Positions 4,524 through 51,579 of a stretch of 64,000 bases of DNA are shown piece by piece. Under the pieces are notes generated by a model that did no database searches, was not told where the DNA came from, and was given only the letters and a program-made list of their open reading frames with translations. Each line of letters starts with the position of its first letter. Within the stretch, counting starts at the first letter, position 1. The stretch comes from an uncultured Staphylococcaceae bacterium (GTDB lineage Bacteria; Bacillota_I; Bacilli_A; RFN20; CAG-826). Position numbers and translations under genes: made by a program. The stretch is from assembly GCA_964386745.1 (NCBI GenBank), contig CAYLSZ010000002.1, positions 1,717 through 65,716 on the forward strand, read 5' to 3'.

Positions 4524-4692
4524 TAATAACCACACAATTTCTTAAAGTTTTTGTATCTATTATTCATAATCACAATCGCAAAAAACTCATTATTTCACAC
4601 AAAAACCCTACAGAACTGCCATATTTTATAAGAAATTCGATATCTCATGCGCTAATTCCAACCCCACAATTTCTTAAAGCTTTTCTATCTAC
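4524..4692. repeat. pair of about 35-bp direct repeats (CCACAATTTCTTAAAG core), about 130 bp apart
   Basis: 4524-4560 TAATAACCACACAATTTCTTAAAGTTTTTGTATCTAT versus 4653-4692 TAATTCCAACCCCACAATTTCTTAAAGCTTTTCTATCTAC. Confidence 0.6.
4601..4627 (+). repeat. CTGCAG-core dispersed repeat, degenerate copy (CTACAG)
   Basis: AAAAACCCTACAGAACTGCCATATTTT compared with the family consensus. Confidence 0.5.
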
Positions 4693-4703
4693 ACAAACAA
4701 AAA

Positions 4704-4725
4704 GGAAGGGGACGAATCCCCTTCC
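4704..4725 (-). terminator. rho-independent terminator after the ABC substrate-binding gene
   Basis: GGAAGGGGA-CGAA-TCCCCTTCC, a 9-bp GC-rich stem followed by a T-run on the minus strand. Confidence 0.8.
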
Positions 4726-4773
4726 AAAAGCGGTTATATATCTAAGATTGACTCTTAAATACCGTTGTAATTA

Positions 4774-5883
4774 TTATTTCAATTCTTCGCAGATTTCGTA
4801 TAAGACTGAGAAATCGATTGAGTCTTCAATACTTTTAACTGTCGATGTATCAGAATAGTTACCACCACTGATAGCTGATTCACGAATATTATTGACGTAT
4901 TTTAAGTCATCGCCAGAATCACGAAGTTCGAGTTGTTGTTCAGCACTTAACCAAATAGCAGTGTTTGGATCTAAACTATCAGCTAAAACGGCACCAGCAG
5001 TAACTTCTTCAATATCTTCTAAGCAAGCTTCTGGATCGGCATTACGATAATTCATACCTTTAACTAAAGCTCTCATAAAGCTATAGAATAAATCTTCATT
5101 AGCTTCTTTCCATGCGGTATTGACTGCCCATGTTGATGGAGTATAGTCATCTGCCATGTGAGTTGAAGTTTTAGCAACGACTGTAAAGTTTTCAGTATCT
5201 CTTTCTAATTGAGTCGAAACTGGAGCAAAAGCAACTACGAAATCATAATCACCACTTTGAGCGGATGTAGCAATATTTGCGTTAGTCGAGTTAACGATTG
5301 TAATTTGGTTAGCTGTTGTGTAGTAACTTTCATCTAATTCTGGATATTTTGTACCATCATCAACTTCATACCATAAATAATTACCATCAGTTACTGATTC
5401 GTTAAGAACACTCAATAAACTTCTGAAGAATGTAATTGGGGTAGCTGTTGTATCTAAAGCAACAGTTGATGTTCTTAAAGCGGCAATGAGCTCTTCAACA
5501 GGTGAATCTACAGTTAAACCTGCACCTCTTCCGCCGTTATAAGCAATTAAACGATCATCATCTGTTAAATTATCTAAAGCGACCATCGTAATTGCAGAAT
5601 TTTCACTAAAGTAATTCCAAGCAACACCGTTACCCATATAGGAAACATCAATTTCCCCAGCGATTAAAGCGGCTGCTAAATTTGGTCCAGTACCCATATT
5701 GACTTCCATAGTGAAGCCTTCTTCTTGATCATAACCTTGAGCATAAGCACTATAACCAGCACCAGCACCTAAATTAGTGTGTAAACCGACTCTAACAGTG
5801 GCTCCACTATCACAACTTGTTAAACCTGTTAAACTAGCGGTTAAACCAATTGCACCTAAAATTGCTAATAATTTTCCTTTCAT
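4774..5883 (-). CDS. ABC transporter substrate-binding lipoprotein, NMT1/THI5-like (NitT/TauT family)
   Basis: Start chosen at MKGKLL (ATG 5883) with AGGAGG upstream. Lipobox LTGLTSC. NMT1-like core (VRVGL..GPNLAAALIAGEIDVSYMG). Confidence 0.8.
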   Translation of the reverse strand: MKGKLLAILGAIGLTASLTGLTSCDSGATVRVGLHTNLGAGAGYSAYAQGYDQEEGFTMEVNMGTGPNLAAALIAGEIDVSYMGNGVAWNYFSENSAITMVALDNLTDDDRLIAYNGGRGAGLTVDSPVEELIAALRTSTVALDTTATPITFFRSLLSVLNESVTDGNYLWYEVDDGTKYPELDESYYTTANQITIVNSTNANIATSAQSGDYDFVVAFAPVSTQLERDTENFTVVAKTSTHMADDYTPSTWAVNTAWKEANEDLFYSFMRALVKGMNYRNADPEACLEDIEEVTAGAVLADSLDPNTAIWLSAEQQLELRDSGDDLKYVNNIRESAISGGNYSDTSTVKSIEDSIDFSVLYEICEELK

Positions 5884-5917
5884 ATTTTGTCCTCCTAAAT
5901 ATTTATAAAAATTATTA

Positions 5918-6831: not shown

Positions 6832-7881
6832 CTATTTCCATCTTGTGAATAGTTTTTCAAAGGCGAGTAATACCTTATCTAAAACGATTCCACATATACC
6901 TAATACGATAATACCCATGACTGCATAATCCATTCTTAGATACGAGGCCTGAGTATTGATAAACGCTCCAAGTCCATAAATCGTTCCCGTAAGCTCAGCT
7001 GCGATAAGGGTAGTCATAGCAACACCAATACCTAATCTCATAGCTGTTAAGATAAATGGGAATGCACTAGGAACGATAACACCAGTGAATAAGTTTCTAT
7101 CTCTAGCGCCGAATGTATAAGCAGCTTTTACTAAAGTTAAATCAACATTTTTGACGCCTTGATAAATCGTAACAGTCATCGTAAGCGTACAAGCTAAACA
7201 TATAATGAAATACTTAGGACCTTCAGCAACACCCATTGCTGCAACGACGATTGGAACGTAAGCAATTGGTGGAATACATCTTAAGAATTGAATGAATGGA
7301 TCTAAGAAAGCTCTAATTCCTTTATACCAAGCCATCAAGAATCCAAGTGGAATAGAAATACATATAGCAATTACGTAACCTATAGCGACTCTACTAAGCG
7401 ACATACTTAGATGTCTCCATAAGATTCCATTATCTATAGTTGTTACAAATCTATCCCAAACAGTGGCTGGACTTGATAAGAAACTTGTTCCACCATTTGC
7501 TTCAGTGACTGAAGCATAAATCCACCAAATAGCGATAACTACAATGATACCAATAACACCAACAAGTAACGATTTCCATCTAGCCCAAGCACTAAAGTCT
7601 TTCATCTTTTTAGGGCCACTTGTAGCAGCATCGTTTACTGGTTTTGGAAGTCTAGATAAATCAACTTCTAATACGGCAGCTTCACGATTTGCTTTCCACT
7701 TTTTAACAAATAGAGGGACGATTTTTTGTTTAAATCCGGCTTTCCATTCACTAAAAGTTTTCTTCTCTTTTTTCTCTTCACTTACGGTTTCAAGAGAAGT
7801 TTCCGATAATTGTTCCTCTGCTTGATCTTCAATTTTTCTTTCAGAATCCTTGAGATCTGCAGGCTTTTTTTCAATTTTCAT
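6832..7881 (-). CDS. ABC transporter permease (NitT/TauT family) with a charged N-terminal extension of about 110 aa
   Basis: SsuC/TauC-like membrane core with an EAA-type loop ([22 protein letters not shown]). Start at MKIEKK (AAAGGAG upstream). Codons 5-11 coincide with a repeat core. Confidence 0.8.
7850..7871 (-). repeat. CTGCAG-core repeat copy embedded at the 5' end of the permease CDS
   Basis: The reverse complement AAAAAAAGCCTGCAGATCTCAA matches the 19327-19357 copy at 21 of 22 positions. Confidence 0.6.
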
Positions 7882-12360: not shown

Positions 12361-12410
12361 TAAAATCGGCTGTTTTTGAGAAAAAAGCCTGCAGAACTCC
12401 ACTATTTTTT
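12361..12410 (+). repeat. CTGCAG-core dispersed repeat, full-length copy
   Basis: TAAAATCGGCTGTTTTTGAGAAAAAAGCCTGCAGAACTCCACTATTTTTT. Its right end contains the stop codon of the 12402-13820 gene. Confidence 0.85.
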
Positions 12411-13820
12411 AAAAATTTTCCTATTTTGAATATATTCATCAATGGCCTTTGCTGCATTCTTTCCAGCGCCCATGGCTAAAATTACAGTTGCTGCTCCAGT
12501 AACTGCATCGCCACCTGCATAGACACCTTTTCTAGTAGTTAATCCACTTTCATCTTTAGTAACAATACAGCCATGCCTATTAGTTTCTAAACCTTCAGTA
12601 GTTTGTTTAATTAATGGATTTGGCGATGTTCCAATGGCCATAATTACACAATCGACTTCAATATCAAACTCGCTTCCATTAACTTTAATTGGGCGACGTC
12701 TACCACTTTCATCTGGTTCGCCTAATTCCATTTTTATGCACCTCATTCCTCTAACAGAATGAGTATTTTGATCCTCTAAAATTTCGACTGGATTATTTAG
12801 TAATTTAAAAATAATCCCTTCTTCTTTAGCGTGTTCTATTTCTTCTTTTCTGGCAGGAAGTTCCTCTTCACCACGTCTATAAACTATATATACTTCTTCC
12901 GCTCCAAGTCGTTTTGCACATCTAGCAGAATCCATCGCTACGTTTCCGCCACCAACTACTGCAACTTTTTTGGCCTTAACTATAGGAGTATCGACTCCTT
13001 CTTTATAAGCTTTCATTAAATTTATACGAGTTAGATATTCATTAGCGCTATATACACCTTTTAAGTTCTCTCCAGGAATGCCCATAAACTTAGGAAGTCC
13101 AGCTCCACTACCTATAAAAATCGCTTCAAAACCATATTCATTTTGTAGTTCATCAATTGATAAGACTTTTCCTATAACCATATTAGTTTCTATTTTTACG
13201 CCTAAAGCTTTTAGCCCTTCAATTTCTTTAGAAACTATCGATTTTGGTAAACGAAATTCAGGAATTCCATATACTAAAACTCCACCAGCTAAATGTAAGG
13301 CCTCAAATATAGTAACTTCGTATCTTTTTTTGGCTAAATCACCAGCGCATGCAAGTCCACTTGGTCCACTACCAATAATCGCTACTTTATATCCGTTTGA
13401 CTTTATATCTATAGGTTTTATTTCGTTATGCTCGTTATGATAATCAGCAACAAATCTTTCGATTCTTCCTATAGCTACCGCTTCGCAGCCTACTTTTAAT
13501 CCTCTAGTGCACTTCTTCTCGCATTGCGTTTCTTGAGGACAAACTCTTCCACATATTGCAGGTAGCGATGAACTTTCACTAATTATTTCGTAAGCTTTTT
13601 CAAAATTACCTTCAGCAACTTGCATAATAAAACTAGGTATATCGATATTTACAGGGCAGCCCGATACACAAGGTTTATTACGACAATTTAAACATCTTTT
13701 TGCTTCATCTATAGCAAGCTCAGGAGTATATCCTAAAGCTACTTCATCAAAATTTTTATTCCTAACATTCGCATCTTGAGAAGGCATTATATTTTTTAGA
13801 GGTCTCATATTTATAGCCAT
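12402..13820 (-). CDS. NADPH-dependent glutamate synthase small-subunit-like oxidoreductase (NfnB/SudA-type)
   Basis: 472 aa. N-terminal Cys clusters (CxxCxxxPCxxxCP) plus two Rossmann GxGxxG motifs (IIGSGPSG, VVGGGNVAMD). Confidence 0.85.
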   Translation of the reverse strand: MAINMRPLKNIMPSQDANVRNKNFDEVALGYTPELAIDEAKRCLNCRNKPCVSGCPVNIDIPSFIMQVAEGNFEKAYEIISESSSLPAICGRVCPQETQCEKKCTRGLKVGCEAVAIGRIERFVADYHNEHNEIKPIDIKSNGYKVAIIGSGPSGLACAGDLAKKRYEVTIFEALHLAGGVLVYGIPEFRLPKSIVSKEIEGLKALGVKIETNMVIGKVLSIDELQNEYGFEAIFIGSGAGLPKFMGIPGENLKGVYSANEYLTRINLMKAYKEGVDTPIVKAKKVAVVGGGNVAMDSARCAKRLGAEEVYIVYRRGEEELPARKEEIEHAKEEGIIFKLLNNPVEILEDQNTHSVRGMRCIKMELGEPDESGRRRPIKVNGSEFDIEVDCVIMAIGTSPNPLIKQTTEGLETNRHGCIVTKDESGLTTRKGVYAGGDAVTGAATVILAMGAGKNAAKAIDEYIQNRKIFKK

Positions 13821-14665: not shown

Positions 14666-14861
14666 AATTTCTCTATATTATAAACCATTAAGTTTACGAC
14701 TTGGGACTAATCGTTTAGAAAAATGAAATATCTTCATTCGTATTACAAATACATTTATTTCCCTTTATTTTAAAGTGTCAACTAAATATAAAAATATTTA
14801 TAAAAAATAATGAAAACATCGAAATTATTGTTATATAATCTTGTCGATAAGGAGTGTCAAT

Positions 14862-15980
14862 ATGTTGACTATTAAAGAGGTCGTTTCAAAACACGAGCAA
14901 AAACAATTTATCACTTTTCCATTGGAGCTTTATAAAGATAACGAATATTTTATTCCGTCTTTATGGTCCACTGAAAAAGCAATTTTTAATCCAAATTATC
15001 ACTATAACAAGACATCTAAAAGCATATGTTTTATAGCTTATAAGGATGACAAGGTTGTAGGTCGTATACAAGGAATCTATAACTCATTAGCTAACGAAAA
15101 ATGGAATCAAAATCGTGTTCGTTTTACTCGTTTTGATAGTATTGACGATCAAGAAGTCGCTAATGCCTTATTTGATAAAGTAGTTGAATGGGCAAAAAGT
15201 TTAGGTGCCGATACCATAAACGGCCCTTTAGGTTATAGCGATTTTGAACGCGAAGGTTTACTTATTGAAGGTTTCGATCAAGAACAAACCTATGAAGAGC
15301 AATATAACTATGATTACTATCAAAAACTCATTGAAAACTATGGTTTTGAAAAAGAGGTCGATTGGCTAGAAAGTCGACTTTTTCCTACCGAATCAGAGTT
15401 TGAAAGACTTAATAACCTAGCTCAAAAGATTAAAAATAGGCATGGTTTTAAACTTCTTCAATTTCGTTCGGTGAGCCAATTAGTAAAAAGGTATGGCGAC
15501 GATTTCTTTAAACTCCTCGATGCAAGTTATAAGGATTTATATCAAACCGTTCCGTTTTTAGATTTCCAACAAAAAGCCTTAATCAAAGATTTTAAAATAC
15601 TTCTTACTCCTTTTTATATTCGCTTAATTGTTGATAAAGATGATAAACTTGCCGCCTTAGGACTTTGCTTCCCACCATTCGGAAAACATTTAAGAAAATC
15701 AGGAGGCAAATTAACCCTTCCAACAATCTATAAAATCTTAAAAGAAAGAGCTAATCCAGAAGGATTAGATTTAGGTTTAATTGGTGTCGCCGAAGAATAT
15801 AAAAACACTGGCGTATCATTTGTTATCCTTAATGAAATTATCCAATTAATGTCTCAAGGAAATATTAAATACTGCGAAACAAATTTGAATTTAGAAACCA
15901 ATTTAGAAATTCAAAATTGTTGGAAAAGATTCAAAAGTATCCAACATAAAAGACGTCGCGCTTATATCTATAAAATATAG
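14862..15980 (+). CDS. GNAT-like N-acetyltransferase family protein (uncharacterised)
   Basis: About 372 aa. Start at MLTIKE with AAGGAG upstream. The assignment is a weak family-level recollection only. Confidence 0.4.
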   Translation: MLTIKEVVSKHEQKQFITFPLELYKDNEYFIPSLWSTEKAIFNPNYHYNKTSKSICFIAYKDDKVVGRIQGIYNSLANEKWNQNRVRFTRFDSIDDQEVANALFDKVVEWAKSLGADTINGPLGYSDFEREGLLIEGFDQEQTYEEQYNYDYYQKLIENYGFEKEVDWLESRLFPTESEFERLNNLAQKIKNRHGFKLLQFRSVSQLVKRYGDDFFKLLDASYKDLYQTVPFLDFQQKALIKDFKILLTPFYIRLIVDKDDKLAALGLCFPPFGKHLRKSGGKLTLPTIYKILKERANPEGLDLGLIGVAEEYKNTGVSFVILNEIIQLMSQGNIKYCETNLNLETNLEIQNCWKRFKSIQHKRRRAYIYKI

Positions 15981-16029
15981 AAAATCTTCAGTTTTTGAGA
16001 AAAAACCCTGCAGATCTCAACTATTTTTT
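15981..16029 (+). repeat. CTGCAG-core dispersed repeat, full-length copy
   Basis: AAAATCTTCAGTTTTTGAGAAAAAACCCTGCAGATCTCAACTATTTTTT. It fills the convergent gap and contains the psuG stop. Confidence 0.85.
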
Positions 16030-16929
16030 AAAATTTTTACAATAACTAACAGCAATTTTTGCGCCTAAAGAGGCGTTATTTAATATAAGGGCAATATTAG
16101 TTTCGAGCGATTTACCACCTGTAAGTTCGACTATTTTTGAAAGCAAAAATGGTGTTTCATCTTTACCATGAATGCCTTTTTCTTCCATCTCTTTAATAGC
16201 TTGATCGATGGTTTTATTTATTACTTTTTCATCTAAAGAATATTCATCAGGAACAGGGTTAGTAACTAAAACTCCACCTTCTAAATTATTGATTCTTTTA
16301 TGGTAAACGATGCTTGCAATATCGTCAGGAGTCTTAGCGTTATAATCAACTTTATATTTAGATGTTTTACTATAGAAAGCAGGTAAATAGTCCGTATTAT
16401 AACCAATAATAGGGACGCCTTTAGTTTCTAAAATTTCTAAAGTTAAACCTAAATCTAAAATGGCTTTTGGACCACCACAAATAACGGTTACATCAGTCTT
16501 TCCTAATTCTTCTAAATCAGCGCTGATATCAAAAGTTATATTGCTCTTTTTATGAGCTCCGCCAATTCCACCAGTAACGAAAAATTCAATTCCAGCTTGT
16601 TTAGCTAAAATCATTGTACTAGCAACTGTGGTAGCACCCCATAATTTATTCGCATATATAATAGGTAAATCTCTACGAGAAGCTTTTACGATTCCTTTTC
16701 TTTTACCAAATTCTTCTATTTCTTCTGGGCGCATTCCAATAACTATTTCGCCATCAATTATTCCGATAGTTGCAGGAATGGCTCCTTCTTTTCTTATAAC
16801 TTCTTCTACTCTTAAAGCTGTTTCAACATTTCTTGGATAAGGCATTCCATGACTTACAATAGTCGATTCTAAAGCGACTACAGGTAAACCTTTATCGATT
16901 GCGTTTTTAACTTCAGTAGAAATTCTCAT
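16021..16929 (-). CDS. psuG: pseudouridine-5'-phosphate glycosidase
   Basis: 302 aa. VVALESTIVSHGMPYP and the overall PsuG/IndA pattern. Confidence 0.9.
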   Translation of the reverse strand: MRISTEVKNAIDKGLPVVALESTIVSHGMPYPRNVETALRVEEVIRKEGAIPATIGIIDGEIVIGMRPEEIEEFGKRKGIVKASRRDLPIIYANKLWGATTVASTMILAKQAGIEFFVTGGIGGAHKKSNITFDISADLEELGKTDVTVICGGPKAILDLGLTLEILETKGVPIIGYNTDYLPAFYSKTSKYKVDYNAKTPDDIASIVYHKRINNLEGGVLVTNPVPDEYSLDEKVINKTIDQAIKEMEEKGIHGKDETPFLLSKIVELTGGKSLETNIALILNNASLGAKIAVSYCKNFKK

Positions 16930-19326: not shown

Positions 19327-19370
19327 AAAAAAGCCTGCAGATCTCAACTATTTTTTTCGATTTTATTAAT
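19327..19370 (+). repeat. CTGCAG-core dispersed repeat, short copy with the CGATTTTATTAAT right flank
   Basis: AAAAAAGCCTGCAGATCTCAACTATTTTTTTCGATTTTATTAAT. The right flank is shared with the 37341-37404 copy and encodes the last 8 codons of the 19344-19952 gene. Confidence 0.8.
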
Positions 19371-22710: not shown

Positions 22711-22770
22711 TAAAATCTGCCGTTTTTGAGAAAAAACCCTGCAGAACTCAACTATTTTTGTAAAAACACA
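22711..22770 (+). repeat. CTGCAG-core dispersed repeat, full-length copy with the GTAAAAACAC right flank
   Basis: TAAAATCTGCCGTTTTTGAGAAAAAACCCTGCAGAACTCAACTATTTTTGTAAAAACAC. Confidence 0.85.
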
Positions 22771-33452: not shown

Positions 33453-33478
33453 AAAATAACCAAGATCTGCAAGGTTAA
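33451..33478 (-). repeat. CTGCAG-core repeat, degenerate copy
   Basis: AAAAAATAACCAAGATCTGCAAGGTT compared with AAAAAATAGTTGAGATCTGCAGGGTT. Confidence 0.45.
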
Positions 33479-33479
33479 A

Positions 33480-33593: not shown

Positions 33594-33639
33594 AAAAAAT
33601 AGTTGGGTTCTGCAGGTTTATTCTTAAAATTAGCGTTTC
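33594..33639 (-). repeat. CTGCAG-core dispersed repeat copy
   Basis: AAAAAATAGTTGGGTTCTGCAGGTTTATTCTTAAAATTAGCG. Confidence 0.7.
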
Positions 33640-34822: not shown

Positions 34823-37258
34823 TTATTTTATAGATTCTTCATCCTTTTTAGTTAGATATTTAATGCCTTTAAAGAGTTTGCCATTAACTAAATATACCAA
34901 TCCTTGAGCTTGGTTATAGGATAACGTACCTCCACTAGCATTATAAGCGTTACGAATATTCATAGAACTATATGCTTTTAAAATTACATATGCACTCTTA
35001 TATTGGATGTTGTGTTGGATAGGATCTTTAATTTTCCTAGCCTTTTTCATTGCTCTTTTTGCATATATACGAACAGCTAATTTGAGAATTTTAGCCATAA
35101 AAGTGTTCATATATTCGATTGACGTTTCCATATCATAAGGTTTTTTAGGTTTAACGAAGTCTATGAATTTATAGTCAAGGATATCTTTAAATTGTTCGTC
35201 GGTTATAGTTAATAAATCGTTTGGATTTGAGTATAAATTTTTAATATTGGCAGGTAATTCCTCTATCGTTTCGCCTTTAATTTCAACCTCAACCTCGCTT
35301 ATCGAGTCATGAGCATTCTTTGCTAAAACGAAAATATATTTTTCATCCTCAAGCACAAATTTCTTACGACTTAAGTCATAAGATTTAAGGTCATCAAAAT
35401 CTATTTTAACTTCAATTTCTTTCATTTCATGGGGGTTCTGCAGGGTTTTTCCAAATTTTACGAGGTTTTTTATAGGTCTATAGGTCTTGCTATCAGGCTT
35501 TTTAACATAGATTTGGTAGACCTCTTTACCTGCTATATCACTAACGTTTTCTATATTAAATCTAGCAACAACTTTATCTTCCTTTACATCAACTTTAAAA
35601 TCGCTATATTTAAATTCACTATAACTTAAGCCGTATCCAAACGGAAAATTAACCTCTTTATTTACGCTTTCATAATATCTATATCCAACATAAATCGATT
35701 CTTTATATAACTCATTCGTATTCTTGGTGAATTCATTACCAAATGGCACATCTTTATAATCTTTAACCCACGTTTCACTAAGTCTTCCACTAAAATTGTT
35801 GTATCCAAATAAAAGTTTGTATAAACCTTCTCCGATAGCTTCTCCACTTAGACCCATATAAACAAGTGCATCGATTTTATCTAAATGTGGAATAGTCACA
35901 CTACTTCCACCATTTAATATAAATATGATTGGTTTACCTAAAGCAACTAATATATCAAGCAACTCAATTTCACTTTTTGGTAAATCCATAGTTGGTCGAT
36001 CAAAACCTTCGCTTTCAATAAAATCGGTTTGACCGCCAAAAAAGAGTATATAGTCATAGTTTTGAACTATCTTTTTAATCTTCTTAACATCTTTTTTAAT
36101 AAGTTTATCGCTTTCGAGATAACCTTTTATATACGTATAGTCGATACTATTCTCATCGAATGCCATTTTATAGGTCTTTAGATAAGATGGATTTAACAAA
36201 CTCGAACCATTTCCTTGGTAGCGACATTGTTCAAATAAATCACCAACTACTAAAAGTTTCTTATCTTGTTTTAAAGGCAATATGTTGTTTTCATTCTTTA
36301 ATAAAACGGCCGAATCAATAACAGCTTCTAAAGCGACTTTGTAATTTTCTTTAAACACTTCTTCAGTTTGCTCTTCTTTTTCTACTAATACATAGTCATT
36401 TATAAAAGATAGGACTCTTTCTACGGATTTATTTAGTGTTTCTAAACTCACAGTTCCATCTTTAACGGCTTTAATCAATATTTCGGTGTTGTGCTTCACA
36501 TTTCCCGGAGTTTCTATATCGTTTCCAGCGTTTAAAGATTTATCTCTATTGACCATGCCACCCCAATCAGTCATCAAAAACCCTTCAAAACCAGCTTCAC
36601 CCCTTAAAAACCCATTAATAAGTTCTTTATTCTCTGACATATGAACGCCATTTACTTTGTTATACGAACTCATAAATGTTGCAGGTTTTGATTTCTTACA
36701 AACAATTTCGTATGGTTTTAAATAAATTTCATGTAGGGCTTTGTCATCAATAATCGAGTCGCTAGCATGACGATTCTTTTCGCAGTTATTAGCTAAATAA
36801 TGTTTGACACTAACGCCAACTTTTTGATCTTGAACCCCGTTTATATAAGCGCTAGCTAAAACTCCATCTAAATATGGGTCTTCACTTAAATATTCAAAGT
36901 TTCTTCCACATAATGGGTTTCTTTTTATGTTGATTGCTGGTCCTAATAATATGTGTTTGTTGTAATAAATACATTCTTTAGCAATGGCTTGACCAACTTT
37001 ATAAAATAATTCTTCATCAAAACTACAAGATAAGATACTTCCAGTAGGAAAAACAGTCGATTTCACTTTACTACTAAATGGCGTATTGTCGTTTTCTAAA
37101 ACTGTCCTTACTCCGTTTGGTCCATCAGTTAAATTGATCGATGGAATGTTTAATCTAGGAATATCATATGTTGAAAATTGAGTTTTCCCACCAAGTAAAT
37201 GGCGCTTTTCTTCAATTGTTAACTCTTCTAATGCTCTCTTTATATCAACCTTTTCCAT
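34823..37258 (-). CDS. glycoside hydrolase family 3 (beta-glucosidase/BglX-like)
   Basis: 811 aa. GH3 N-terminal domain (LTDGPNGVR, KHY, MTDWGG), C-terminal sandwich and Fn3-like domain. No signal peptide. Confidence 0.85.
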   Translation of the reverse strand: MEKVDIKRALEELTIEEKRHLLGGKTQFSTYDIPRLNIPSINLTDGPNGVRTVLENDNTPFSSKVKSTVFPTGSILSCSFDEELFYKVGQAIAKECIYYNKHILLGPAINIKRNPLCGRNFEYLSEDPYLDGVLASAYINGVQDQKVGVSVKHYLANNCEKNRHASDSIIDDKALHEIYLKPYEIVCKKSKPATFMSSYNKVNGVHMSENKELINGFLRGEAGFEGFLMTDWGGMVNRDKSLNAGNDIETPGNVKHNTEILIKAVKDGTVSLETLNKSVERVLSFINDYVLVEKEEQTEEVFKENYKVALEAVIDSAVLLKNENNILPLKQDKKLLVVGDLFEQCRYQGNGSSLLNPSYLKTYKMAFDENSIDYTYIKGYLESDKLIKKDVKKIKKIVQNYDYILFFGGQTDFIESEGFDRPTMDLPKSEIELLDILVALGKPIIFILNGGSSVTIPHLDKIDALVYMGLSGEAIGEGLYKLLFGYNNFSGRLSETWVKDYKDVPFGNEFTKNTNELYKESIYVGYRYYESVNKEVNFPFGYGLSYSEFKYSDFKVDVKEDKVVARFNIENVSDIAGKEVYQIYVKKPDSKTYRPIKNLVKFGKTLQNPHEMKEIEVKIDFDDLKSYDLSRKKFVLEDEKYIFVLAKNAHDSISEVEVEIKGETIEELPANIKNLYSNPNDLLTITDEQFKDILDYKFIDFVKPKKPYDMETSIEYMNTFMAKILKLAVRIYAKRAMKKARKIKDPIQHNIQYKSAYVILKAYSSMNIRNAYNASGGTLSYNQAQGLVYLVNGKLFKGIKYLTKKDEESIK

Positions 37259-37340: not shown

Positions 37341-37404
37341 ATTAATAAAAATCGCAAAAAATAGTGGAGTTCTGCAGGGTTTTTCTTATAAAACGGCGAT
37401 TTTT
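37341..37404 (-). repeat. CTGCAG-core dispersed repeat, full-length copy
   Basis: The reverse complement reads TAAAATCGCCGTTTTATAAGAAAAACCCTGCAGAACTCCACTATTTTTTGCGATTTTTATTAAT. Confidence 0.85.
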
Positions 37405-37508
37405 AATAATATATAACCACTTGTCAAATATTAATAAATCTAATTTTTGTTGCCAATAATTATTATCGCCTTTACAATGGCGCTATCTTTTTCATGGAGG
37501 TACTTTAT

Positions 37509-39890
37509 ATGAAAAAAAGAAAATTGCTTTTGCTTTTGCCACTTTTAGCCCTTGGGCTTGTTAGTTGCGAAGGCACTGAAGAGCCGGTTGTCGATCCCGA
37601 TCCGGTAGAGGAACCTGTCGATGACGATCCAGTAGTTGATGATGATCCTGTTATCGACGACGACCCTATTGTTGACGATGATCCAGTAATCGATGATGAC
37701 CCAATTGATGACGACGATCCTGTAGTCGATGATGACCCAGTTGGCGACGATCCTATTGATGAACCTGAAGTGACTAATCACGAACCAGCTATTGAAGCTT
37801 TAAAAGGTTTAGAATCGGTTGCTATCAAGGGCGCCTATTCTTCTGCAGCAACTTACTATAAGGACACAGATTACGAAGAAGAAGGTGCAAAGTATACATA
37901 TGAAACTTCTGGTATTTATACTAGTGAATACGTTTGGGCTTATCATAGTTATGAAGGAAATGGATATGAAAGCGAAACTGTTGTCGTTAATAAAGATGGT
38001 TTAGCTGCAACTGAATCTCTTAATAGACATAACGAAGTCGAATGGGAAATATTAACTGATGATTCTACTGGGGATCAAATTGTTTATACCGATAAATATT
38101 ATCAACCATTCACATATGTCACTACTGAAAACTCTACTTGGGATGAAAATACATCGACTCTTTCTATAGATACAGCTAGTGTCGAAGATGGGTTAACCTT
38201 ATTCGATGAACTCTTTAATGATGATATGTATGATCCTGTTACGTTGGTTATAGGATTTACTAGCGATCTCACTCCTTCTACCGTCACGTTCCACGATGAA
38301 TATGATTATTATTCAACTTGGTATACTAGAGAATACGAAGGTGAATTTGTTGAAGTTTCTGAACTTGAAGGAAACGTCACTCGCGCTACTCCTTATGATA
38401 CTTATGATGAAGCTTCTGGTCTTGAAGCTATTTTAGAAACCTTACAAAATGCAGAAAGTTATACCGTTAGGGTAAAAGGTTATGAAAATTATATTTACGC
38501 ATATCTTGATAAAGATGTCGGCGTTGTTTCATTCCACTATACTAGCATGGTATTAAAAGGAACTTTACAAGTAGATGATGATAGCTATGTCAATTTCGAA
38601 GATGTTTCTGGTAGTGCTGTTAATGCAACTAGCGGAAATATAAAAGGCAATGCTTACGATGCATATTTTGCTTCTGGATCTAGCGGAATGACTCCTGATT
38701 ACGATGTCGCTCCTGAAATGTTTAATTATGAAGGTGTAGATGATAGCGGCAATGCAGTCTATGGAATTAAATTAGAACTTGGAACATCCTTATATCCATA
38801 TCTTCTTCCAGCTTATCCAATGGCAGAAGAAACTTATGGAAGAGGCAGCATGGTAAATGGCTATAGAGAAGTCTACATTGGTGGCGATACATCTACTGAT
38901 TTAACTACTGTTTACTATCGTTTACAAATCTCAGGAACTACAACCAATCCTGAAATGACGTTTAGTTATGAAACTACTGATGGTGATATATACACAAATA
39001 CAATAGTTTTCAGTGATATTAATAGCACAACTATTCCATATACTAGCGTTAACTATCCATCTTCATGGAGTGGAATATTAGGCGATACTACTGACCTTGA
39101 TGCTATCTTAAACCAAGGCACATCAGGTAATTTAACTTTCGATAGAGATATTCCATATATCCTTTGGGAAGATAATGCTTGGACATTAGATCAAGTTTAT
39201 ACATCATCCACCGCTGTCGATTTATATTTATATGGTGGAAGTTATGACGAAGTTACTTCAATGCTTGATGAATATAAAACAACATTAACAACTGCTAGTT
39301 GGAGCATTGAAAATACTAATGAAAGCGATACAAATCAAACCGCAACACTTAAGAATTCAGACGGAACTATTGGTATAATGCTTGAAGCTCAAATATATAC
39401 ATATTACGGTAATACATACTACTTCTTCGATGTTTATGTATATGGCTTAACTGGTGATTATGAAACATTAATCACTAACTTAGCAGGCGCAGAAACTGTT
39501 GCTGAGTACGAAAGTGAATCACAAGCTTCGGTAGACTTAGAAACAATTGGTGATGTGTTCCCTTATGTCAATCCTTATTTAGGATTCTATAGTTATTTAG
39601 TCTTATATACTTCATCTGACTATTCAACATTCAATTGGGCTCTTACATATCAACTTCTCACTTCATCAAGTTCAATACAAACATATATCGACGAATTATA
39701 TGAAGAAGTAAATCCAATCTATACTGAAGCTGGTTGGACATGTGTTGAATCAACATATGGTAGTAGAACGATTTATACATGGAGTTGGACTGACGAAACA
39801 ACTGAAACTACTTACTCGCTTCAAGCATCATGGACAACTAATTATTATTACTACTGGGTCTTCTTAATGTTCTCTGCTGAAGCAGCATAA
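37509..39890 (+). CDS. large surface lipoprotein with an acidic DDDPV-repeat linker, function unknown
   Basis: Start at MKKRKLL (GGAGG upstream). Lipobox LGLVSC. 793 aa, Thr/Tyr/Asp-rich. Confidence 0.75.
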   Translation: MKKRKLLLLLPLLALGLVSCEGTEEPVVDPDPVEEPVDDDPVVDDDPVIDDDPIVDDDPVIDDDPIDDDDPVVDDDPVGDDPIDEPEVTNHEPAIEALKGLESVAIKGAYSSAATYYKDTDYEEEGAKYTYETSGIYTSEYVWAYHSYEGNGYESETVVVNKDGLAATESLNRHNEVEWEILTDDSTGDQIVYTDKYYQPFTYVTTENSTWDENTSTLSIDTASVEDGLTLFDELFNDDMYDPVTLVIGFTSDLTPSTVTFHDEYDYYSTWYTREYEGEFVEVSELEGNVTRATPYDTYDEASGLEAILETLQNAESYTVRVKGYENYIYAYLDKDVGVVSFHYTSMVLKGTLQVDDDSYVNFEDVSGSAVNATSGNIKGNAYDAYFASGSSGMTPDYDVAPEMFNYEGVDDSGNAVYGIKLELGTSLYPYLLPAYPMAEETYGRGSMVNGYREVYIGGDTSTDLTTVYYRLQISGTTTNPEMTFSYETTDGDIYTNTIVFSDINSTTIPYTSVNYPSSWSGILGDTTDLDAILNQGTSGNLTFDRDIPYILWEDNAWTLDQVYTSSTAVDLYLYGGSYDEVTSMLDEYKTTLTTASWSIENTNESDTNQTATLKNSDGTIGIMLEAQIYTYYGNTYYFFDVYVYGLTGDYETLITNLAGAETVAEYESESQASVDLETIGDVFPYVNPYLGFYSYLVLYTSSDYSTFNWALTYQLLTSSSSIQTYIDELYEEVNPIYTEAGWTCVESTYGSRTIYTWSWTDETTETTYSLQASWTTNYYYYWVFLMFSAEAA
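37585..37765 (+). repeat. tandem 18-bp (6-aa) coding repeat, about 8 units, P-V/I-x-D-D-D
   Basis: PVVDDD PVIDDD PIVDDD PVIDDD PIDDDD PVVDDD PVGDD, read from the translation and the DNA. Confidence 0.85.
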
Positions 39891-39962: not shown

Positions 39963-40015
39963 CCCCGCTTTTTACAAAAAGAGCGGGGTTCTGCAGGGTT
40001 TTGTTCGCAAAACCC
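39963..40015. terminator. compound hairpin region between convergent genes, incorporating a repeat core
   Basis: CCCCGCTTTTT-AC-AAAAAGAGCGGGG, then GGTTCTGCAGGGTTTT, and GGGTTTTGTTCGCAAAACCC. Confidence 0.65.
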
Positions 40016-44607: not shown

Positions 44608-44665
44608 GTCATTTAAGGCAATCTTTATTTTTAACTCGCTCTAACAATGTTTGATAATAAAAAAC

Positions 44666-45334: not shown

Positions 45335-45514
45335 TTTCTCGACATATTGAGTATCGCAAAAAATATTAATATATCTACTTTTCCTCCTGTATTGATTAAA
45401 TTATAAAGTACAACAAATAATTGAAAAGGAAAAATATATTTTGCTAATTGTTTTTAAGCTAGCAAAAGATCTTATAACATCAATATAGTCGTCAATAGTT
45501 CACTTAATAGCATA

Positions 45515-45563
45515 TAAAATCCGCTGAATTTCAGAAAAAACCCTGCAGATCTCAATTATTTTT
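45515..45563 (+). repeat. CTGCAG-core dispersed repeat, full-length copy
   Basis: TAAAATCCGCTGAATTTCAGAAAAAACCCTGCAGATCTCAATTATTTTT. Confidence 0.85.
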
Positions 45564-45666
45564 ATAAAAAAACGAAACTTTTAAAACTCAAAGTTCCTCT
45601 ATTTATATGGAAGTTTTTATTAAGTTCAATAATGAATTGGAACTAATATAAATTAGAAGATTACTC

Positions 45667-47434: not shown

Positions 47435-47462
47435 GAATTAGGTAATATATTTAACTAAAAAA

Positions 47463-47516
47463 ACGCTTAATTTAAGAAAAAACCCTGCAGATCGCCACTA
47501 TTTTTTGTAAAACACG
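47463..47516 (+). repeat. CTGCAG-core dispersed repeat copy with the GTAAAACAC flank
   Basis: ACGCTTAATTTAAGAAAAAACCCTGCAGATCGCCACTATTTTTTGTAAAACAC. Confidence 0.8.
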
Positions 47517-47522
47517 AACTTT

Positions 47523-47553
47523 ATAAATAGCGATAGATCAACCGCAGGGTTTT
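47523..47553 (-). repeat. degenerate inverted partner of the preceding copy
   Basis: The reverse complement AAAACCCTGCGGTTGATCTATCGCTATTTAT pairs with the 47463-47516 copy to give a long imperfect hairpin between convergent genes. Confidence 0.5.
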
Positions 47554-47571: not shown

Positions 47572-48876
47572 TTAAATATCTTCCTTTAAACAGAACACGG
47601 CATATAAAGGAACTGACTTAATATTATTTTCAAAACCAAAGTTTTTACTTGAGACTCTTATTGAATATTTAGGCGAATACTTATTGGCAAATACAGACAA
47701 ACTTTTCGCTTTAACATTATCAGCATACTTACATTCAATAGGAACAACTTCATCATCAAGTTGAATAACAAAGTCTACTTCTGCGCTATTTCTCGATTCC
47801 CAATAATATGGATAGATTCCTATTGAAACTAATTGTTGCATTATATAGTTTTCAGCTAAAGTGCCTTTAGCATCACTAGATAAATTGTTAGTTAAAATAT
47901 TTTTTACACTAATATTTAAACTATCCGTAAGTAAACCAACATCGTTCATATACATTTTAAAAGACAAAAAATCTTCATGTATCTTTAAAGGTAATGTTCC
48001 TTCGGTAACCTTGTTACATTTATAAACGACGCCGGCCGTTTTAAGCCATTCAATAGCGTCATCATAGGTTCTAGCTCTTGCACCACTTCCAATAAGACTA
48101 TATAAAAATTTCTTATTTTCTTTTGCTAGCTGTGAAGGGATAGTATTATACGCAGCAATAATTCGATCGCTTTCTTTTAAGTCGACATATTTAGTCATAT
48201 CGCCACGATAACTACTTAAAATTTCATCTTGTATGATTTTTACATAACCATAATCTTTATTATTAATGAAAGATTGGACTGCCGAAGGCATGCCACCGAC
48301 AATTAAATATTTATAATAGTACTCTAAAATCGTGTTATGAACGACACTTGGTAAAACACTAACACTTCTATATGCTTCTTTAATTTTAACGATAAGTTCA
48401 TATTGGTCCATAGCCATTAAAAATTCTTCAAAGTTTAATGGATACATAGTCACCATATTTACTTTTCCTACAGGGAATGAATAATGTCCTCTATTTACCG
48501 CTAAACCAAGTAAACTTCCGGCAGCTATTATATGGACGTCACGACGCTCCTCACAAAAATATTTAAGCGAAGTTAAAGCCTTCTCGCATTCTTGTATTTC
48601 ATCAAATACGATAAGCGTTTTATCTTTTAAAACTTTTTGATTAGTAACACTTTCGATTTCGTCTATGATTCTATTAGGAACTAAGTCAGGGTCAAAAATC
48701 GCTTTCAAACCAGCGTTACCTTCAAAATTAAGATAGATAACGTTATCATAATTTGCTAATCCAAATTCATATATAGAGTAAGTTTTACCAACTTGTCTAG
48801 CTCCATATACCAACAAAGGCTTTCTTTCAGGATCATTTTTCCACTTTAGTAAATAGTTTCCAATTAGTCTCTTCAT
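47572..48876 (-). CDS. AAA+ ATPase (AAA_14) with a DUF4143 / PD-(D/E)xK-like C-terminal domain
   Basis: Walker A GARQVGKTY, Walker B LIVFDEIQ. C-terminal EVDFV...PIECK nuclease-like motif. Start chosen at MKRLIGNY; the track ORF begins at a TTG at 48912. Confidence 0.75.
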   Translation of the reverse strand: MKRLIGNYLLKWKNDPERKPLLVYGARQVGKTYSIYEFGLANYDNVIYLNFEGNAGLKAIFDPDLVPNRIIDEIESVTNQKVLKDKTLIVFDEIQECEKALTSLKYFCEERRDVHIIAAGSLLGLAVNRGHYSFPVGKVNMVTMYPLNFEEFLMAMDQYELIVKIKEAYRSVSVLPSVVHNTILEYYYKYLIVGGMPSAVQSFINNKDYGYVKIIQDEILSSYRGDMTKYVDLKESDRIIAAYNTIPSQLAKENKKFLYSLIGSGARARTYDDAIEWLKTAGVVYKCNKVTEGTLPLKIHEDFLSFKMYMNDVGLLTDSLNISVKNILTNNLSSDAKGTLAENYIMQQLVSIGIYPYYWESRNSAEVDFVIQLDDEVVPIECKYADNVKAKSLSVFANKYSPKYSIRVSSKNFGFENNIKSVPLYAVFCLKEDI

Positions 48877-48914
48877 ATTGAATAATTTACTAGAAAAAGA
48901 GAGGAAAATCAATA

Positions 48915-48948: not shown

Positions 48949-49311
48949 ATTCAGTTTTTATACCCAATTTATTAATGAAACATTAAAAAAAGGTTTATGC
49001 TCATGTAACGTTATAAATAGTTCCTCAAGGTAATAAATAATCGAAAACAACAACACAAAATTTACTATAAAACGCGTTAAATGGCCTTTTAAAAAAATGT
49101 AGTAACAATCGGAACTTTTTAAGCAAAATCCGCAACATTTCGGGATCAAAACCAGCAACATTTCGATTTACCGGTTTTACCTACCACCCACAAACGATTA
49201 AAACCTACATTTTGAACGCCTTTTTCATTATTAATAGTTTCCGTTCCGAGTGTTTTCACTTTTTTAATCCGCAAGATTTGCACTTTTCATTCCGAAGGAT
49301 TTTAAACAAAA

Positions 49312-49366
49312 CGGGGCAAAATGCCCCGAAAATCTCAAGCAAAACGGGGCATTTTGTTGCCTTTTT
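49312..49366 (+). promoter_or_regulatory. three-arm alternative hairpin (CGGGGCA / TGCCCCG / CGGGGCA) plus U-tract, in the leader of the 49407-50756 gene
   Basis: Arm 1 is 49312-49318, arm 2 is 49322-49328 and arm 3 is 49345-49351, followed by TTTTGTTGCCTTTTT. The 2:3 pairing extends to 11 bp (AAAATGCCCCG/CGGGGCATTTT). Confidence 0.45.
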
Positions 49367-49406
49367 CTCTAATTTACTTTATTATAAAAGCAATGGAGGA
49401 ATAGTA

Positions 49407-50756
49407 ATGCACCGTTTTTGCGAAAATAATATTGTTGATTGGTTAAATAATAGTAAAGGCGCGCTATTAGTTAGTGGCGCTAGGCAAGTAGGAAAGACCT
49501 ATATCATTCGTAATGTTTTACAAGAGCACAATATTCATTATTTAGAAATCAATTTCTTTGATCGTCCTGACATTCTTCAAACTCTTAAAAATATTACTGA
49601 CATCAACGATTTTGTTGACCGTTTGCGTTTGTATTCTTCTACTCCTTTAATTGAAAAAGAGAGCGTAATTTTCTTTGACGAGATACAAGAATTTCCTGAG
49701 ATCATTACTAAGATAAAATTCCTTGTAGATAATGGCACATTTAGATATATCCTTAGCGGTTCTTTATTAGGGTTAGAAATTAAAAATATACGCTCAATAC
49801 CTGTTGGATATTATCAAGAACTCAAAATGTATCCGATGAGCTTCTTGGAATTTTGTAAAGCTCAAAATATTAATAAGAAAGTATTCGCGCATTTAGAGGA
49901 TTGTTATAACAACAAACAACCCGTCGATAAAATTATCCACGAAAAGATGCTTAACTTGTTCACTCAATATTTAGTTGTTGGCGGTATGCCTAGAGTTGTT
50001 CAAACTTTCTTAGATACCTCAAATCTCGTCAAAGTCGACGAGGAAGCTAGAAACATTATCTACCAATATAAAGCTGACTTTTCTAAATATGAAAGCGACG
50101 ATAAAAAACTAAGACTATTAGCTATTTATGACAACATACCTTTACAACTCAATAAACAAAATCTTCGTTTCCAATTCACATACTTAAATAAAGAATTGAA
50201 ATTTAATCGCTACGAAAATTCATTTTTATGGCTAACTGATGCCGGAGTCGTTTATCCTTGCTATATCGCTAACGAGATTAAAACTCCTTTAATCATTTCA
50301 AAGGAAAAGAATACCTTTAAACTATTTATGAATGATGTTGGATTATTATTAAGTACATTCCCATTTTCTGTACGCCAAGGATTTATCGATTTTTCACAAC
50401 AATATCTTAATGTAAATCTTGGCGCTATATATGAAAATTGCGTCATGCAAGAATTAGTCGCTAATTCCTTAACACCTTACTACTATAAAAGCAAACGAAT
50501 AGGTGAAATTGATTTTGTTTTAGAGATTGATGGCAAGATGTTAGCTCTTGAAGTTAAATCTGGTCACGATATTAAAAATCACAAATCGTTAGATAAACTT
50601 CAAAAACAAACTGAATATAAAATCGATCAATATATTGTTCTTTCAAAAGAAAACCTTTTTGAAAAAGATAACATCCTATATCTTCCTATCTATATGTGTG
50701 AGTTTATTAAGGAAACAAAACCCGAAAGTGTTATAATTCCTAAGGTTGAAATATAA
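49407..50756 (+). CDS. AAA+ ATPase (AAA_14) with a DUF4143 / PD-(D/E)xK-like C-terminal domain
   Basis: Start at MHRFCENN (GGAGGAATAGTA-ATG). GARQVGKTY, VIFFDEIQ. C-terminal EIDFV...ALEVK. Confidence 0.8.
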   Translation: MHRFCENNIVDWLNNSKGALLVSGARQVGKTYIIRNVLQEHNIHYLEINFFDRPDILQTLKNITDINDFVDRLRLYSSTPLIEKESVIFFDEIQEFPEIITKIKFLVDNGTFRYILSGSLLGLEIKNIRSIPVGYYQELKMYPMSFLEFCKAQNINKKVFAHLEDCYNNKQPVDKIIHEKMLNLFTQYLVVGGMPRVVQTFLDTSNLVKVDEEARNIIYQYKADFSKYESDDKKLRLLAIYDNIPLQLNKQNLRFQFTYLNKELKFNRYENSFLWLTDAGVVYPCYIANEIKTPLIISKEKNTFKLFMNDVGLLLSTFPFSVRQGFIDFSQQYLNVNLGAIYENCVMQELVANSLTPYYYKSKRIGEIDFVLEIDGKMLALEVKSGHDIKNHKSLDKLQKQTEYKIDQYIVLSKENLFEKDNILYLPIYMCEFIKETKPESVIIPKVEI

Positions 50757-50779
50757 AAAAACTCTTTAAAATTTTACTT

Positions 50780-51550
50780 ATGAAAAAGACATCGAAATTA
50801 ATATTAACTTTATTAACAACTGCTGCTATCACTTCCTTATCTAGCTGCGATCTATTTAATCAAGACTATGAAACTAGAATCTCAGGTGATTTTTTATATA
50901 AATATATAAAAAGTTCTGATGCTAAAATAACTTATGAAGATGGTGATTACGTCGCTATTTATGAATTATCTACCGAAGGACTAACTAAAGATACACTAAT
51001 AGTTCCTGATGAAATAGATAATAAACCAGTCATTAAAATAGGTTTACCAGGTAGCGAATCGACTCGTAATATTTTTACTGGTAGCCCTAGCTTCACTTCT
51101 TTATATTTACCTAAATCATTAGAAGTAATGGGTTGTCATTCTTTATGTACTAATAAAAAGTTGTTCATAATAGAGTCAGATAATTACTACATTCATGGCA
51201 ATAAACAACACGGAGCAAATTTATATCTACCTGAAAACCTATATAACGAATATATAAATTATTATGATGAAGAAGACTTAGGACTTACTTCTTTACATAT
51301 CGCTAATTTAGAGTTTATTAGTGAAGGCGAAGTCTATTTTATAGGAGACTATGAAGAAGGTGATTTGATAAGTTATGTACCTGATGCTCCTAATAAAGAA
51401 GGCGATTATAACTTTGTTGGATGGTATAAAGAGGAAGAATGTATTAACGAATGGGATTTTACTAACGATACATTTTCTCTTAATGAAGGCGAAACTAAAA
51501 TGAGGCTTTACGCCAAGTTTGTAGAAATAGATCCTACGTTTTCTTACTAA
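50780..51550 (+). CDS. lipoprotein with a C-terminal Listeria-Bacteroides (Flg_new/InlB B-repeat-like) repeat
   Basis: Lipobox SLSSC. C-terminal YNFVGWYKEEECINEWDF...RLYAKF. Confidence 0.65.
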   Translation: MKKTSKLILTLLTTAAITSLSSCDLFNQDYETRISGDFLYKYIKSSDAKITYEDGDYVAIYELSTEGLTKDTLIVPDEIDNKPVIKIGLPGSESTRNIFTGSPSFTSLYLPKSLEVMGCHSLCTNKKLFIIESDNYYIHGNKQHGANLYLPENLYNEYINYYDEEDLGLTSLHIANLEFISEGEVYFIGDYEEGDLISYVPDAPNKEGDYNFVGWYKEEECINEWDFTNDTFSLNEGETKMRLYAKFVEIDPTFSY

Positions 51551-51579
51551 AAACCCTGCAGATCTCCACTAAAATTTTT
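51549..51579 (+). repeat. CTGCAG-core dispersed repeat, short copy
   Basis: AAAAACCCTGCAGATCTCCACTAAAATTTTT, starting inside the stop codon of the lipoprotein gene. Confidence 0.8.

Follow-up and report, generated by a model that had tools for sequence, protein, structure and literature searches.

A dispersed 29-nt motif of the Candidatus Onthovivens clade, a candidate recognition sequence that may accumulate in place at gene ends and within genes

The stretch of DNA presented here (64,000 nt of contig CAYLSZ010000002.1 from an uncultured bacterium; hereafter the window, to whose full length all positions refer) is ordinary chromosome of ~32% GC with metabolic and housekeeping genes, among which copies of a short motif are dispersed. 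Genes were called as simple open reading frames (ORFs) and the orientation of the motif is that of its core as written, AAAAACCCTGCAGAWCTCMACTATTTTT / AAAAACCCTGCAGAWCTCMACTATTTTTT. A preliminary description of this DNA had proposed a family of at least 13 intergenic repeats, and the family proved to be genuine and beyond chance: the core was matched nine times when up to 3 mismatches were allowed, where dinucleotide shuffles predict 0.00, and an nhmmer profile built from these nine copies recovered all of them (E-values 1e-12 to 1e-17) and added weaker ones at 2369-2425(-), 758-810(+) and 39968-40014(-). An ungapped scan with two consensus variants led to 17 copies at ≤8 mismatches, the mismatch counts running from 0 to 8 without a break. 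In total, 10 strong and seven weaker copies occur in the window in both orientations; in this bacterium and its relatives the motif is met at a density of ~1 per 6 kb. All 13 positions described earlier hold, 12 of them directly and the last, 47523-47553(-), as an imperfect inverted copy pairing with 47478-47506. Further degenerate copies were detected inside genes (774, 2377, 7841, 25231, 62015 and ~35423). The copies of the window are the following:

774..802, plus strand: in-gene copy with 6 mismatches inside NagA, 675..1802(-), read as KMLGICRDF
2377..2405, minus strand: in-gene copy with 5 mismatches in the aldose-1-epimerase-like gene 1911..2726(+), read as KIVPICGVL
4601..4629, plus strand: degenerate intergenic copy with 7 mismatches
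7841..7869, minus strand: in-gene partial copy, exact over the first 20 of 29 nt, at the N-terminus of a gene
12361..12410, plus strand: full-length copy, core 12382-12410 with 3 mismatches
15981..16029, plus strand: full-length copy, core 16001-16029 with 0 mismatches
19327..19357, plus strand: copy of the AAAAAGCC variant with 1 mismatch, in a 25-nt convergent gap
22711..22760, plus strand: full-length copy, core 22732-22760 with 0 mismatches, between 21899..22618(-) and the tRNA-Trp gene
25231..25259, plus strand: weak in-gene copy with 8 mismatches
33451..33479, minus strand: degenerate copy with 8 mismatches, directly 3' of the hairpin terminator GCGGCATTTTTGCCGC
33594..33639, minus strand: copy with 4 mismatches between the convergent genes for a PfkB kinase and an AKR
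~35423..35451, minus strand: in-gene partial copy in a GH3 gene (AAAAACCCTGCAGAACCCC), read as KTLQN
37356..37404, minus strand: full-length copy with 2 mismatches in a divergent promoter gap
39968..40014, minus strand: degenerate copy with 5 mismatches within two hairpins, the second of which is the MetRS terminator
45515..45564, plus strand: full-length copy with 2 mismatches in the gap of two co-directional genes, antisense to both
47458..47553, both strands: inverted pair of copy 47478-47506(+) and imperfect inverted copy 47523-47553(-)
51549..51577, plus strand: copy with 4 mismatches overlapping the end of 50780..51550(+) and followed by a hairpin terminator
62015..62043, plus strand: weak in-gene copy with 8 mismatches inside the GH53 gene 60988..62127(-)

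The copy at 12361..12410 holds the TAG stop of a GltD-like gene, 12402..13820(-), whose protein is 4-5 aa longer than the orthologues of two relatives, L136 and L050, in which a hairpin terminator follows the gene in the motif's stead (L-numbers denote loci from metagenome-assembled genomes (MAGs) or contigs, all relatives being MAG fragments). Copy 15981..16029 occupies a 40-nt convergent gap and gives PsuG, 16021..16929(-), its TAG stop, at a gene end where hairpin terminators are established in L130, L132 and L134. Copy 19327..19357 includes the TGA stop of 19344..19952(-), and at its position, 3' of the orthologous YolD gene, L134 has the terminator AAGCCAGCGGTTGCTGGCTT. Three window copies (at PsuG, YolD and GltD) are hence located at the places of their relatives' hairpin terminators, and the gaps compared are of similar length, 40 nt with the motif vs. 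43-54 nt with a terminator and 25 vs. 28 nt, in gaps whose neighbouring genes on one side differ between the genomes. About half of the motif-bearing 3' gaps of the window have no other terminator. Copy 37356..37404 is bordered by a 10-nt inverted repeat, TAAAAATCGC / GCGATTTTTA, and the 47478/47523 pair forms a long hairpin in a convergent gap; two divergent AAA_14/DUF4143 ATPase genes, 47572..48912(-) and 49212..50756(+), adjoin this pair. The tRNA gene beyond copy 22711..22760, tRNA-Trp(CCA) at 23192-23265, is the only one in the window. The hexamer CTGCAG occurs 16 times in the window against 5.5 expected, and the earlier remark that it lies mostly within the motif stands for 13 of these sites, 10 of them in intergenic copies and three in degenerate in-gene copies (781, 7857 and 35438). 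Its single exception, at 37843, is not the sole one, because 55277 and 55901 are also unrelated to the motif.

Concerning its distribution, the exact 25-base pattern AAASCCTGCAGAWCTCMACTATTTT was searched in one genome per species for 185,579 species. The 48 loci detected all come from MAGs, five in number, that belong to a single uncultivated clade of Bacilli (Candidatus Onthovivens and its relatives). Bacterium SUG1359 contributes 33 of the loci, and the other four MAGs are Bacilli RGIG4904 (from roe deer rumen), Bacilli BRZ_QT bin77, Bacilli MAG154 and Candidatus Onthovivens sp. SUG2468; the extrapolated density is ~150 copies per Mb. Three stretches are identical between RGIG4904 contigs JAFUXB010000004 and JAFUXB010000005 (L008 = L039, L011 = L040 and L014 = L028), which makes this bin redundant. 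A phage or plasmid origin was discarded, as viral contigs, plasmids and phages gave no match to the motif, and 875 kb of other gut Firmicutes, serving as a negative control (80 unrelated loci of higher GC fetched by the GltD-like protein), gave none either. Contigs fetched via PsuG homologues provided a sample that had not been picked for the motif, in which the nearest relatives of the window share only 79% identity in PsuG. L134/L135, syntenic with the window, carry five degenerate copies in 15.7 kb with a variant of their own, ACTCTTTTT; L136, an Onthovivens sp., carries four degenerate copies in 21 kb and L137 one in 21 kb, and the sister lineages L130/131, L132/133 and L138 bear none in 13-21 kb each. 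Because of the genome scan together with this sample, in which some relatives are motif-free, the family is confined to one clade and patchy inside it. No described repeat family, Rfam model or paper matching the motif was found in the literature searched, and publications on Onthovivens, or on RFN20 with competence, yielded nothing on repeats or competence in the clade; among dispersed repeats, the motif stands as a new family.

The same samples led to some observations on assemblies and on the genetic code. L049, a 1.8-kb contig of Logan SRR7039261 encoding the exact PsuG protein, ends inside the motif 17 nt past the PsuG stop, so short-read assemblies break at the repeat. The PsuG homologues P0003 and P0004 (438 and 368 aa) contain internal duplications of the PsuG domain and are probably products of chimeric assembly. 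The codon CGG is very rare in the window ORFs (5 of 19,008 codons); opposite the CGG at codon 182 of 19344..19952(-), the orthologue has Trp in L132 (FCDWCDSLP) and Phe in L130. A reassignment of CGG to Trp has been reported for Onthovivens (PMC13092985), with which the rare window CGG aligned to Trp would fit.

Only a core of ~29 nt is common across the genomes. It is bipartite, with AAAAACCCTGCAnA, ~8 nt and then TATTTTT, and can also be described as A5-CCCTGCA-n-A, ~8 nt, TATTTTT; it is asymmetric, not palindromic, and harbors A and T tracts. In an information profile of 57 copies not chosen by the genome-scan pattern, AAAAACCCTGCAnA and TATTTTT appear strongly conserved and the ~8-nt middle varies (AACTCAAC, ATCTCAAC, AAACCCCA and others). 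The left arm TAAAATCNGCNGTTTTTGAG, considered previously as a part of the repeat, is conserved in the window's own lineage, but other genomes have the 29-nt core only. In SUG1359 the left flank is (TT)GAAAAWWTCTC, with TTTCTC in place of the left arm, and the right flank is GTAAAAA; lineage variants include AGATCTC, AGAACTC, AAATCTC, AAAACCCCA and ACTCTTTTT. The reverse complement starts with AAAAATAG / AAAAATAGTTGAG, and the motif has a GGGUUUUU tract. Two flank sub-families were recognized in the window, 19328 with 37356 and 22732 with 47478, and the right flank that 19328 and 37356 have in common is an inverted repeat of the left-arm consensus. No inverted repeat and no target-site duplication is common to the family, a clear outer inverted repeat of 10 nt being present at window copy 37356 only.

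It had also been stated that each copy can fold, a claim that our folding comparisons leave weak. Of nine window units, four outperformed shuffles in folding (z -2.3 to -3.6) and five did not; the helix of these four contains G-U pairs, exists in the reverse-complement RNA only and is followed by U-rich sequence. The SUG1359 units folded no better than shuffles (z -0.9 to +1.6), RNAalifold gave no consensus structure, and the best candidate helix was 73% paired, the same as in shuffled controls, with no covariation. The core contains no hairpin with a U tract of the intrinsic terminator kind, since only inverted pairs or partners such as that of L013 make one. Scanning the whole window with Rfam at gathering thresholds detected the tRNA only, and a permissive scan of 22650-22850 gave chance-level matches only. 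The conserved feature is the primary sequence, not structure.

The copies inside genes are informative about how the motif comes into being. Within the coding interiors of the window, motif-like 29-mers number 3, 5 and 6 at thresholds of ≤6, ≤8 and ≤9 mismatches. The corresponding codon-shuffle values are 0, 0.095 and 0.57, and the observed counts were not reached in any of 200 shuffles. Were the unit simply inserted, a protein would gain 12-13 aa. Seven genes with a copy were aligned to homologues; no full-length insertion was found and the net change was 0 to +7 aa, as listed here with the peptide read from the motif:

NagA (window): KMLGICRDF vs. AKQLGIFDRKG, 0 aa
Aldose-epimerase-like protein (window): KIVPICGVL vs. 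PDB 3dcd, a 1-aa gap
RqcH (Onthovivens SUG2468): KKKPAEPYYFY vs. KKQKPHNPVLETY, no net insertion
FGGY kinase (SUG1359), perfect 36-nt copy: KIVEFCRVFEP vs. xylulokinase 5vm1, gap-free across the motif
GltD (L134): KEWGFAGVF vs. the window and L050, 0 aa
AddA (SUG1359): KTLQNSTIF vs. nine homologues, +4 aa
Helicase (SUG1359): KTLQNSTIF vs. L130 and L132, +7 aa

For the FGGY kinase, a PDB search with a 93-aa fragment gave no match and the full-length protein found 5vm1. The site in GltD also reveals a direction: the sequence is CAAAAAGAGTGGGGTTTTGCAGGGGTTTTT in L134 and CAAAATGAATATGGTTTTGAAGCGATTTTT, or a similar one, in the window and in L050. L134 departs from these two at seven positions in a 20-nt stretch. 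Five of the changes bring the sequence closer to the motif and none takes it further off, and NEYGFEAIF has become KEWGFAGVF. Two of the replacements, E to A and A to G, coincide with the motif core TGCAGGG; 50 of 53 homologues have E at the first of these residues and 49 of 53 have A at the second, and the in-gene and intergenic copies of L134 have the same variant, ACTCTTTTT. Judging by these alignments, in-gene copies arise in place and directionally, and the in-gene and GltD data indicate that some force pulls partly similar sequence toward the motif despite protein constraint. The motif sites of AddA and the helicase are poorly conserved regions, and the +4 aa of AddA is weak evidence because its best homologues are only ~40% identical. 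These two cases, along with the likeness of the 19328 and 37356 flanks, suggest that copying with ragged ends occurs too.

Copies are also old, as indicated by their persistence at orthologous positions. The motif is established at the same position in L011 and L013, whose flanking proteins share 56% identity, in L021 and L030 (59-70%) and in L010 and L031 (92%). In the two better-characterised pairs, L021/L030 and L010/L031, the copies are 4-5 point substitutions apart, and the terminator beside the L010/L031 copy shows compensatory changes. The end of the AKR gene carries the motif in opposite orientation in the window vs. L014 (RGIG4904, motif at the stop codon), as does the end of uvrB in L136 vs. 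L137, and three of these four copies (L014, L136 and L137) re-use the gene's stop codon. Inverted pairs or clusters that form hairpins or terminators were identified at 47478/47523 of the window, in L003, where a triplet of copies alternates in orientation, and in L013.

With respect to gene arrangement, 62 copies were classed against ORFs of ≥100 aa. Nineteen lie between co-directional genes with the motif antisense to both and two with the motif in sense, 14 in convergent gaps, 10 inside long ORFs and six in divergent gaps (6 of the 41 intergenic copies), while 11 are at a locus end where one flanking gene is missing from the data. The gene to the right of the motif points toward it in 37 instances and away in 10, and eight ORFs take their stop codon, TAG or TGA, from the motif itself. 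Strand composition was rejected as the full cause of the orientation bias, as it predicts only a 2 to 2.6-fold skew; gene-end Lys codons, which are A-rich, and TAA/TAG, already like the start of the reverse complement, may add to it. The position relative to true terminators varies: in L014 the motif lies between the stop codon and a hairpin terminator, in L010/L031 directly after the terminator T-run, in L013 it is one arm of the terminator, and in L021/L030 it is located in an operon spacer just upstream of the ribosome-binding site. A promoter reading was discarded, because the hexamer spacing fails in both orientations and most copies lie in convergent gaps, and a likeness of GAACTCAACTAT to T7-type promoters was dropped on the same grounds. 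The replication-strand skew of the window copies is weak (7:3). Synteny study of 11600-20750 against L134 (block YolD-DegV-Macro-PsuG-DHODB-GltD) showed that all three breakpoints carry a window copy, and that L134 and L136 have no motif at the breakpoint gene ends; the repeats may mark or mediate rearrangements. A gene cassette around the extra 379-aa gene 14841..15980 was considered and abandoned, as there is no motif copy on the other side of that gene.

The window contains further repeated sequences of its own. A perfect direct repeat of 300 nt occupies 23891-24190 and 26135-26434, each copy being located just 5' of a gene without a Pfam match (24359..26101 and 26404..27807). Four paralogous genes without a Pfam match, encoding proteins of 214, 321, 208 and 222/237 aa, lie in 42042-46380 and show repeated internal and upstream segments. 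Finally, an 18-nt tandem repeat at 37618-37761, coding for DDDP(V/I)(V/I), is found inside a 798-aa protein, 37494..39890, which also lacks a Pfam match.

We tentatively favor the reading that the motif is a recognition sequence which, like uptake signal sequences, builds up in place through directional conversion. Copies appear to arise and stay in place and not to be inserted by transposition, substitutions and small ragged replacements turning partly similar sequence into the motif. The main site is the post-stop spacer, where A-rich Lys codons and TAA/TAG are already like AAAAATAG; occasional copies originate inside genes and are paid for in amino-acid changes. The force may be a molecular drive due to a trans-acting factor with a preference for the motif, the likeliest candidate being sequence-biased DNA uptake with recombination, by analogy with the uptake signal sequences (USS) of Pasteurellaceae and the DNA uptake sequences (DUS) of Neisseriaceae. 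Intergenic copies would be tolerated and end up beside or instead of hairpin terminators, and inverted pairs would make hairpins. The continuum from 0 to 8 mismatches looks like a balance of mutation and drive rather than a single burst of copying. In situ conversion covers more of the data than the copying of a longer unit which the flank sub-families had suggested earlier, and which does apply to a few pairs such as 19328/37356. Of the three roles named at that time, a protein-binding or uptake-type signal is the best fit, whereas a terminator or RNA-stability role does not hold as a general property, with no structure or covariation and with a varying position relative to true terminators. 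More speculatively, it is conceivable, if doubtful, that the Onthovivens clade possesses an uptake or recombination apparatus with a ~29-nt preference, or an unknown templated 'patch-conversion' process that writes the motif over partly similar DNA.

Uptake sequences resemble the motif in many respects. They are lineage-specific and strongly over-represented, with 'dialects' between related lineages; their extended motif is of ~29 nt with a GC-containing core and A and T tracts; their copies arise in place, also in coding sequence, insertion-free and with altered peptides; they favor gene termini and one of the two orientations, inverted pairs serve as hairpins resembling terminators, and positions are common to related species. 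Variation between lineages, extended AT tracts and the use of inverted pairs as parts of terminators are familiar features of uptake sequences. It has been reported that 34-65% of them lie in coding sequence and alter peptide content, with 1,471 USS and 1,892 DUS per genome (PMC2817400), and that they show orientation and gene-terminus biases (PMC2346458). Several points nevertheless weigh against our reading. The host of the motif belongs to Bacillota, and to our knowledge sequence-biased DNA uptake occurs in two proteobacterial families only; we know of no uptake bias in any Gram-positive competence system. A search of 497 kb (the window and the loci, which are genome fragments) revealed neither a prepilin motif (GFTLxE) nor a ComEA-like one, and there was no competence gene among 50 window ORFs scanned against Pfam. 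The motif is several-fold (~5-fold) sparser than USS and DUS, ~80% of its copies are intergenic, and its core, near-perfect over 29 nt, is longer and sharper than known uptake cores of 9-12 nt. The orientation bias in co-directional gaps is strong (19 antisense vs. two sense copies), the perfect-core copies in AddA and the helicase of SUG1359 add 4-7 aa, and the ~20 nt of flank that two window copies have in common, with their outer inverted repeats, hint at some copy-and-paste.

Among the rival explanations, which we rank below this drive-based accumulation, the first holds that a lineage-specific DNA-binding protein recognises the motif at transcription-unit boundaries, and that the motif is maintained by ordinary selection and not by drive. 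It might act as a factor-dependent terminator, a roadblock, an insulator or a nucleoid-organising site, its copies evolving in place like transcription-factor sites. Conservation of the primary sequence with no RNA structure, enrichment at gene 3' ends and convergent gaps (already seen in the preliminary description), the strong orientation bias relative to the upstream gene, the 3' gaps with no other terminator, the retention of orthologous positions across species and the presence of a copy at every L134 breakpoint are all consistent with such a site, and the replacement of the hairpin terminators of PsuG, YolD and GltD is explained better in this way, as is the orientation bias, than by drive. 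However, the significant degenerate in-gene copies and the motif-directed loss of highly conserved GltD residues are left unexplained, as are the copies in operon spacers (L021/L030), after a functional terminator (L010/L031) and in divergent gaps, and a nearly invariant, asymmetric site of 29 nt would be unusual for a regulator, so we consider a boundary site unlikely. Sites such as Chi and KOPS/SRS are comparable in arising by point substitution anywhere in the genome, in being lineage-specific and in their orientation skew of ~75-80%, with the G-rich strand co-directional with genes, and Chi in Escherichia coli, at ~1 per 5 kb, has a density similar to that of the motif; unlike it, they are 5-8-mers mostly in genes, whereas the motif is of 29 nt, mostly intergenic and with a weak replication-strand skew. 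Even less probable, in our view, is an RNA element of mRNA 3' ends, that is, an intrinsic terminator or stabiliser hairpin in reverse-complement orientation, which we rank last and deem very improbable. The four well-folding window units with their U-rich sequence agree with it, and so do the 19 of 21 co-directional gaps in which the reverse complement runs in the same direction as the upstream gene, but the shuffle-like folding of the SUG1359 units, the missing consensus and covariation, the separate hairpin terminators 5' or 3' of many copies and the presence of copies in genes and divergent gaps speak against it.

Ranked between these two, and judged improbable, is a non-autonomous repeat of the kind of repetitive extragenic palindromes (REP) or miniature inverted-repeat transposable elements (MITEs), copied by an enzyme encoded elsewhere (RAYT, IS200/IS605, IS110-type or unknown), which would be tolerated for the most part at 3' ends before it decays. 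Many near-identical copies per genome with genome-specific flanks (the left arm of the window, TTTCTC...GTAAAAA in SUG1359), the flank sub-families 19328/37356 and 22732/47478, the alternating L003 cluster, which resembles bacterial interspersed mosaic elements (BIMEs), the small net insertions of +4 and +7 aa at perfect in-gene copies and the breaking of assemblies at the repeat could all be accommodated by it. RAYT-mobilised REP and BIME sequences are likewise short extragenic repeats, of ~30-40 nt, that lie at 3' ends or within operons, found as singletons and alternating clusters, keeping their positions among relatives and able to replace or supplement terminators. The motif differs from them in its non-palindromic core, which has no GTAG (GT[AG]G) head, and in its in-gene copies made by substitution; moreover, no RAYT was found among the 50 window ORFs scanned against Pfam. 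MITEs and the Correia, RUP, BOX and Rickettsia RPE elements are dispersed, lineage-specific and mostly intergenic as well, and some copies of the motif are read in frame within genes, as RPE copies are, but the motif, at 29 nt, has neither their terminal inverted repeats nor their target-site duplications, and its in-gene copies add 0 to +7 aa and not a full unit. The earlier statement that it is unlike REP, BOX, RUP, ERIC and Correia elements is thus borne out, and the MITE-like parasite suggested at the same time is disfavored. A full-length insertion was found in none of the seven genes tested, the motif in GltD came by clustered substitutions, orthologous copies persist at flanking protein identities of only 56-67%, no transposase was present among the 50 ORFs scanned, the precomputed annotation of PsuG being that of a non-transposase, and no viral, plasmid or phage sequence matched. 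Transposition of this type was set aside because of the in-gene, directional and orthologous-position data, together with the absence of its defining features.

In practical terms, the motif breaks MAG assemblies, supplies stop codons and short C-terminal extensions, marks synteny breakpoints and could serve as a clade-specific marker. Even without a role in uptake, it is a 29-nt sequence that seems to be written into existing DNA without transposition and with the loss of conserved amino acids, and no standard class of bacterial repeats explains such in-place writing at the cost of conserved residues. If accumulation by drive is true, a small-genome clade of gut and rumen bacteria would be subject to a force overwriting post-stop spacers, terminators and even conserved codons, and the motif would be the first sequence of the uptake-signal type outside Proteobacteria. 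Whether uptake sequences originate from drive or from selection has long been debated, and an uptake-type motif that is independent, Gram-positive-derived, longer and sharper, with motif-free sister lineages, would offer a natural comparison for that debate.

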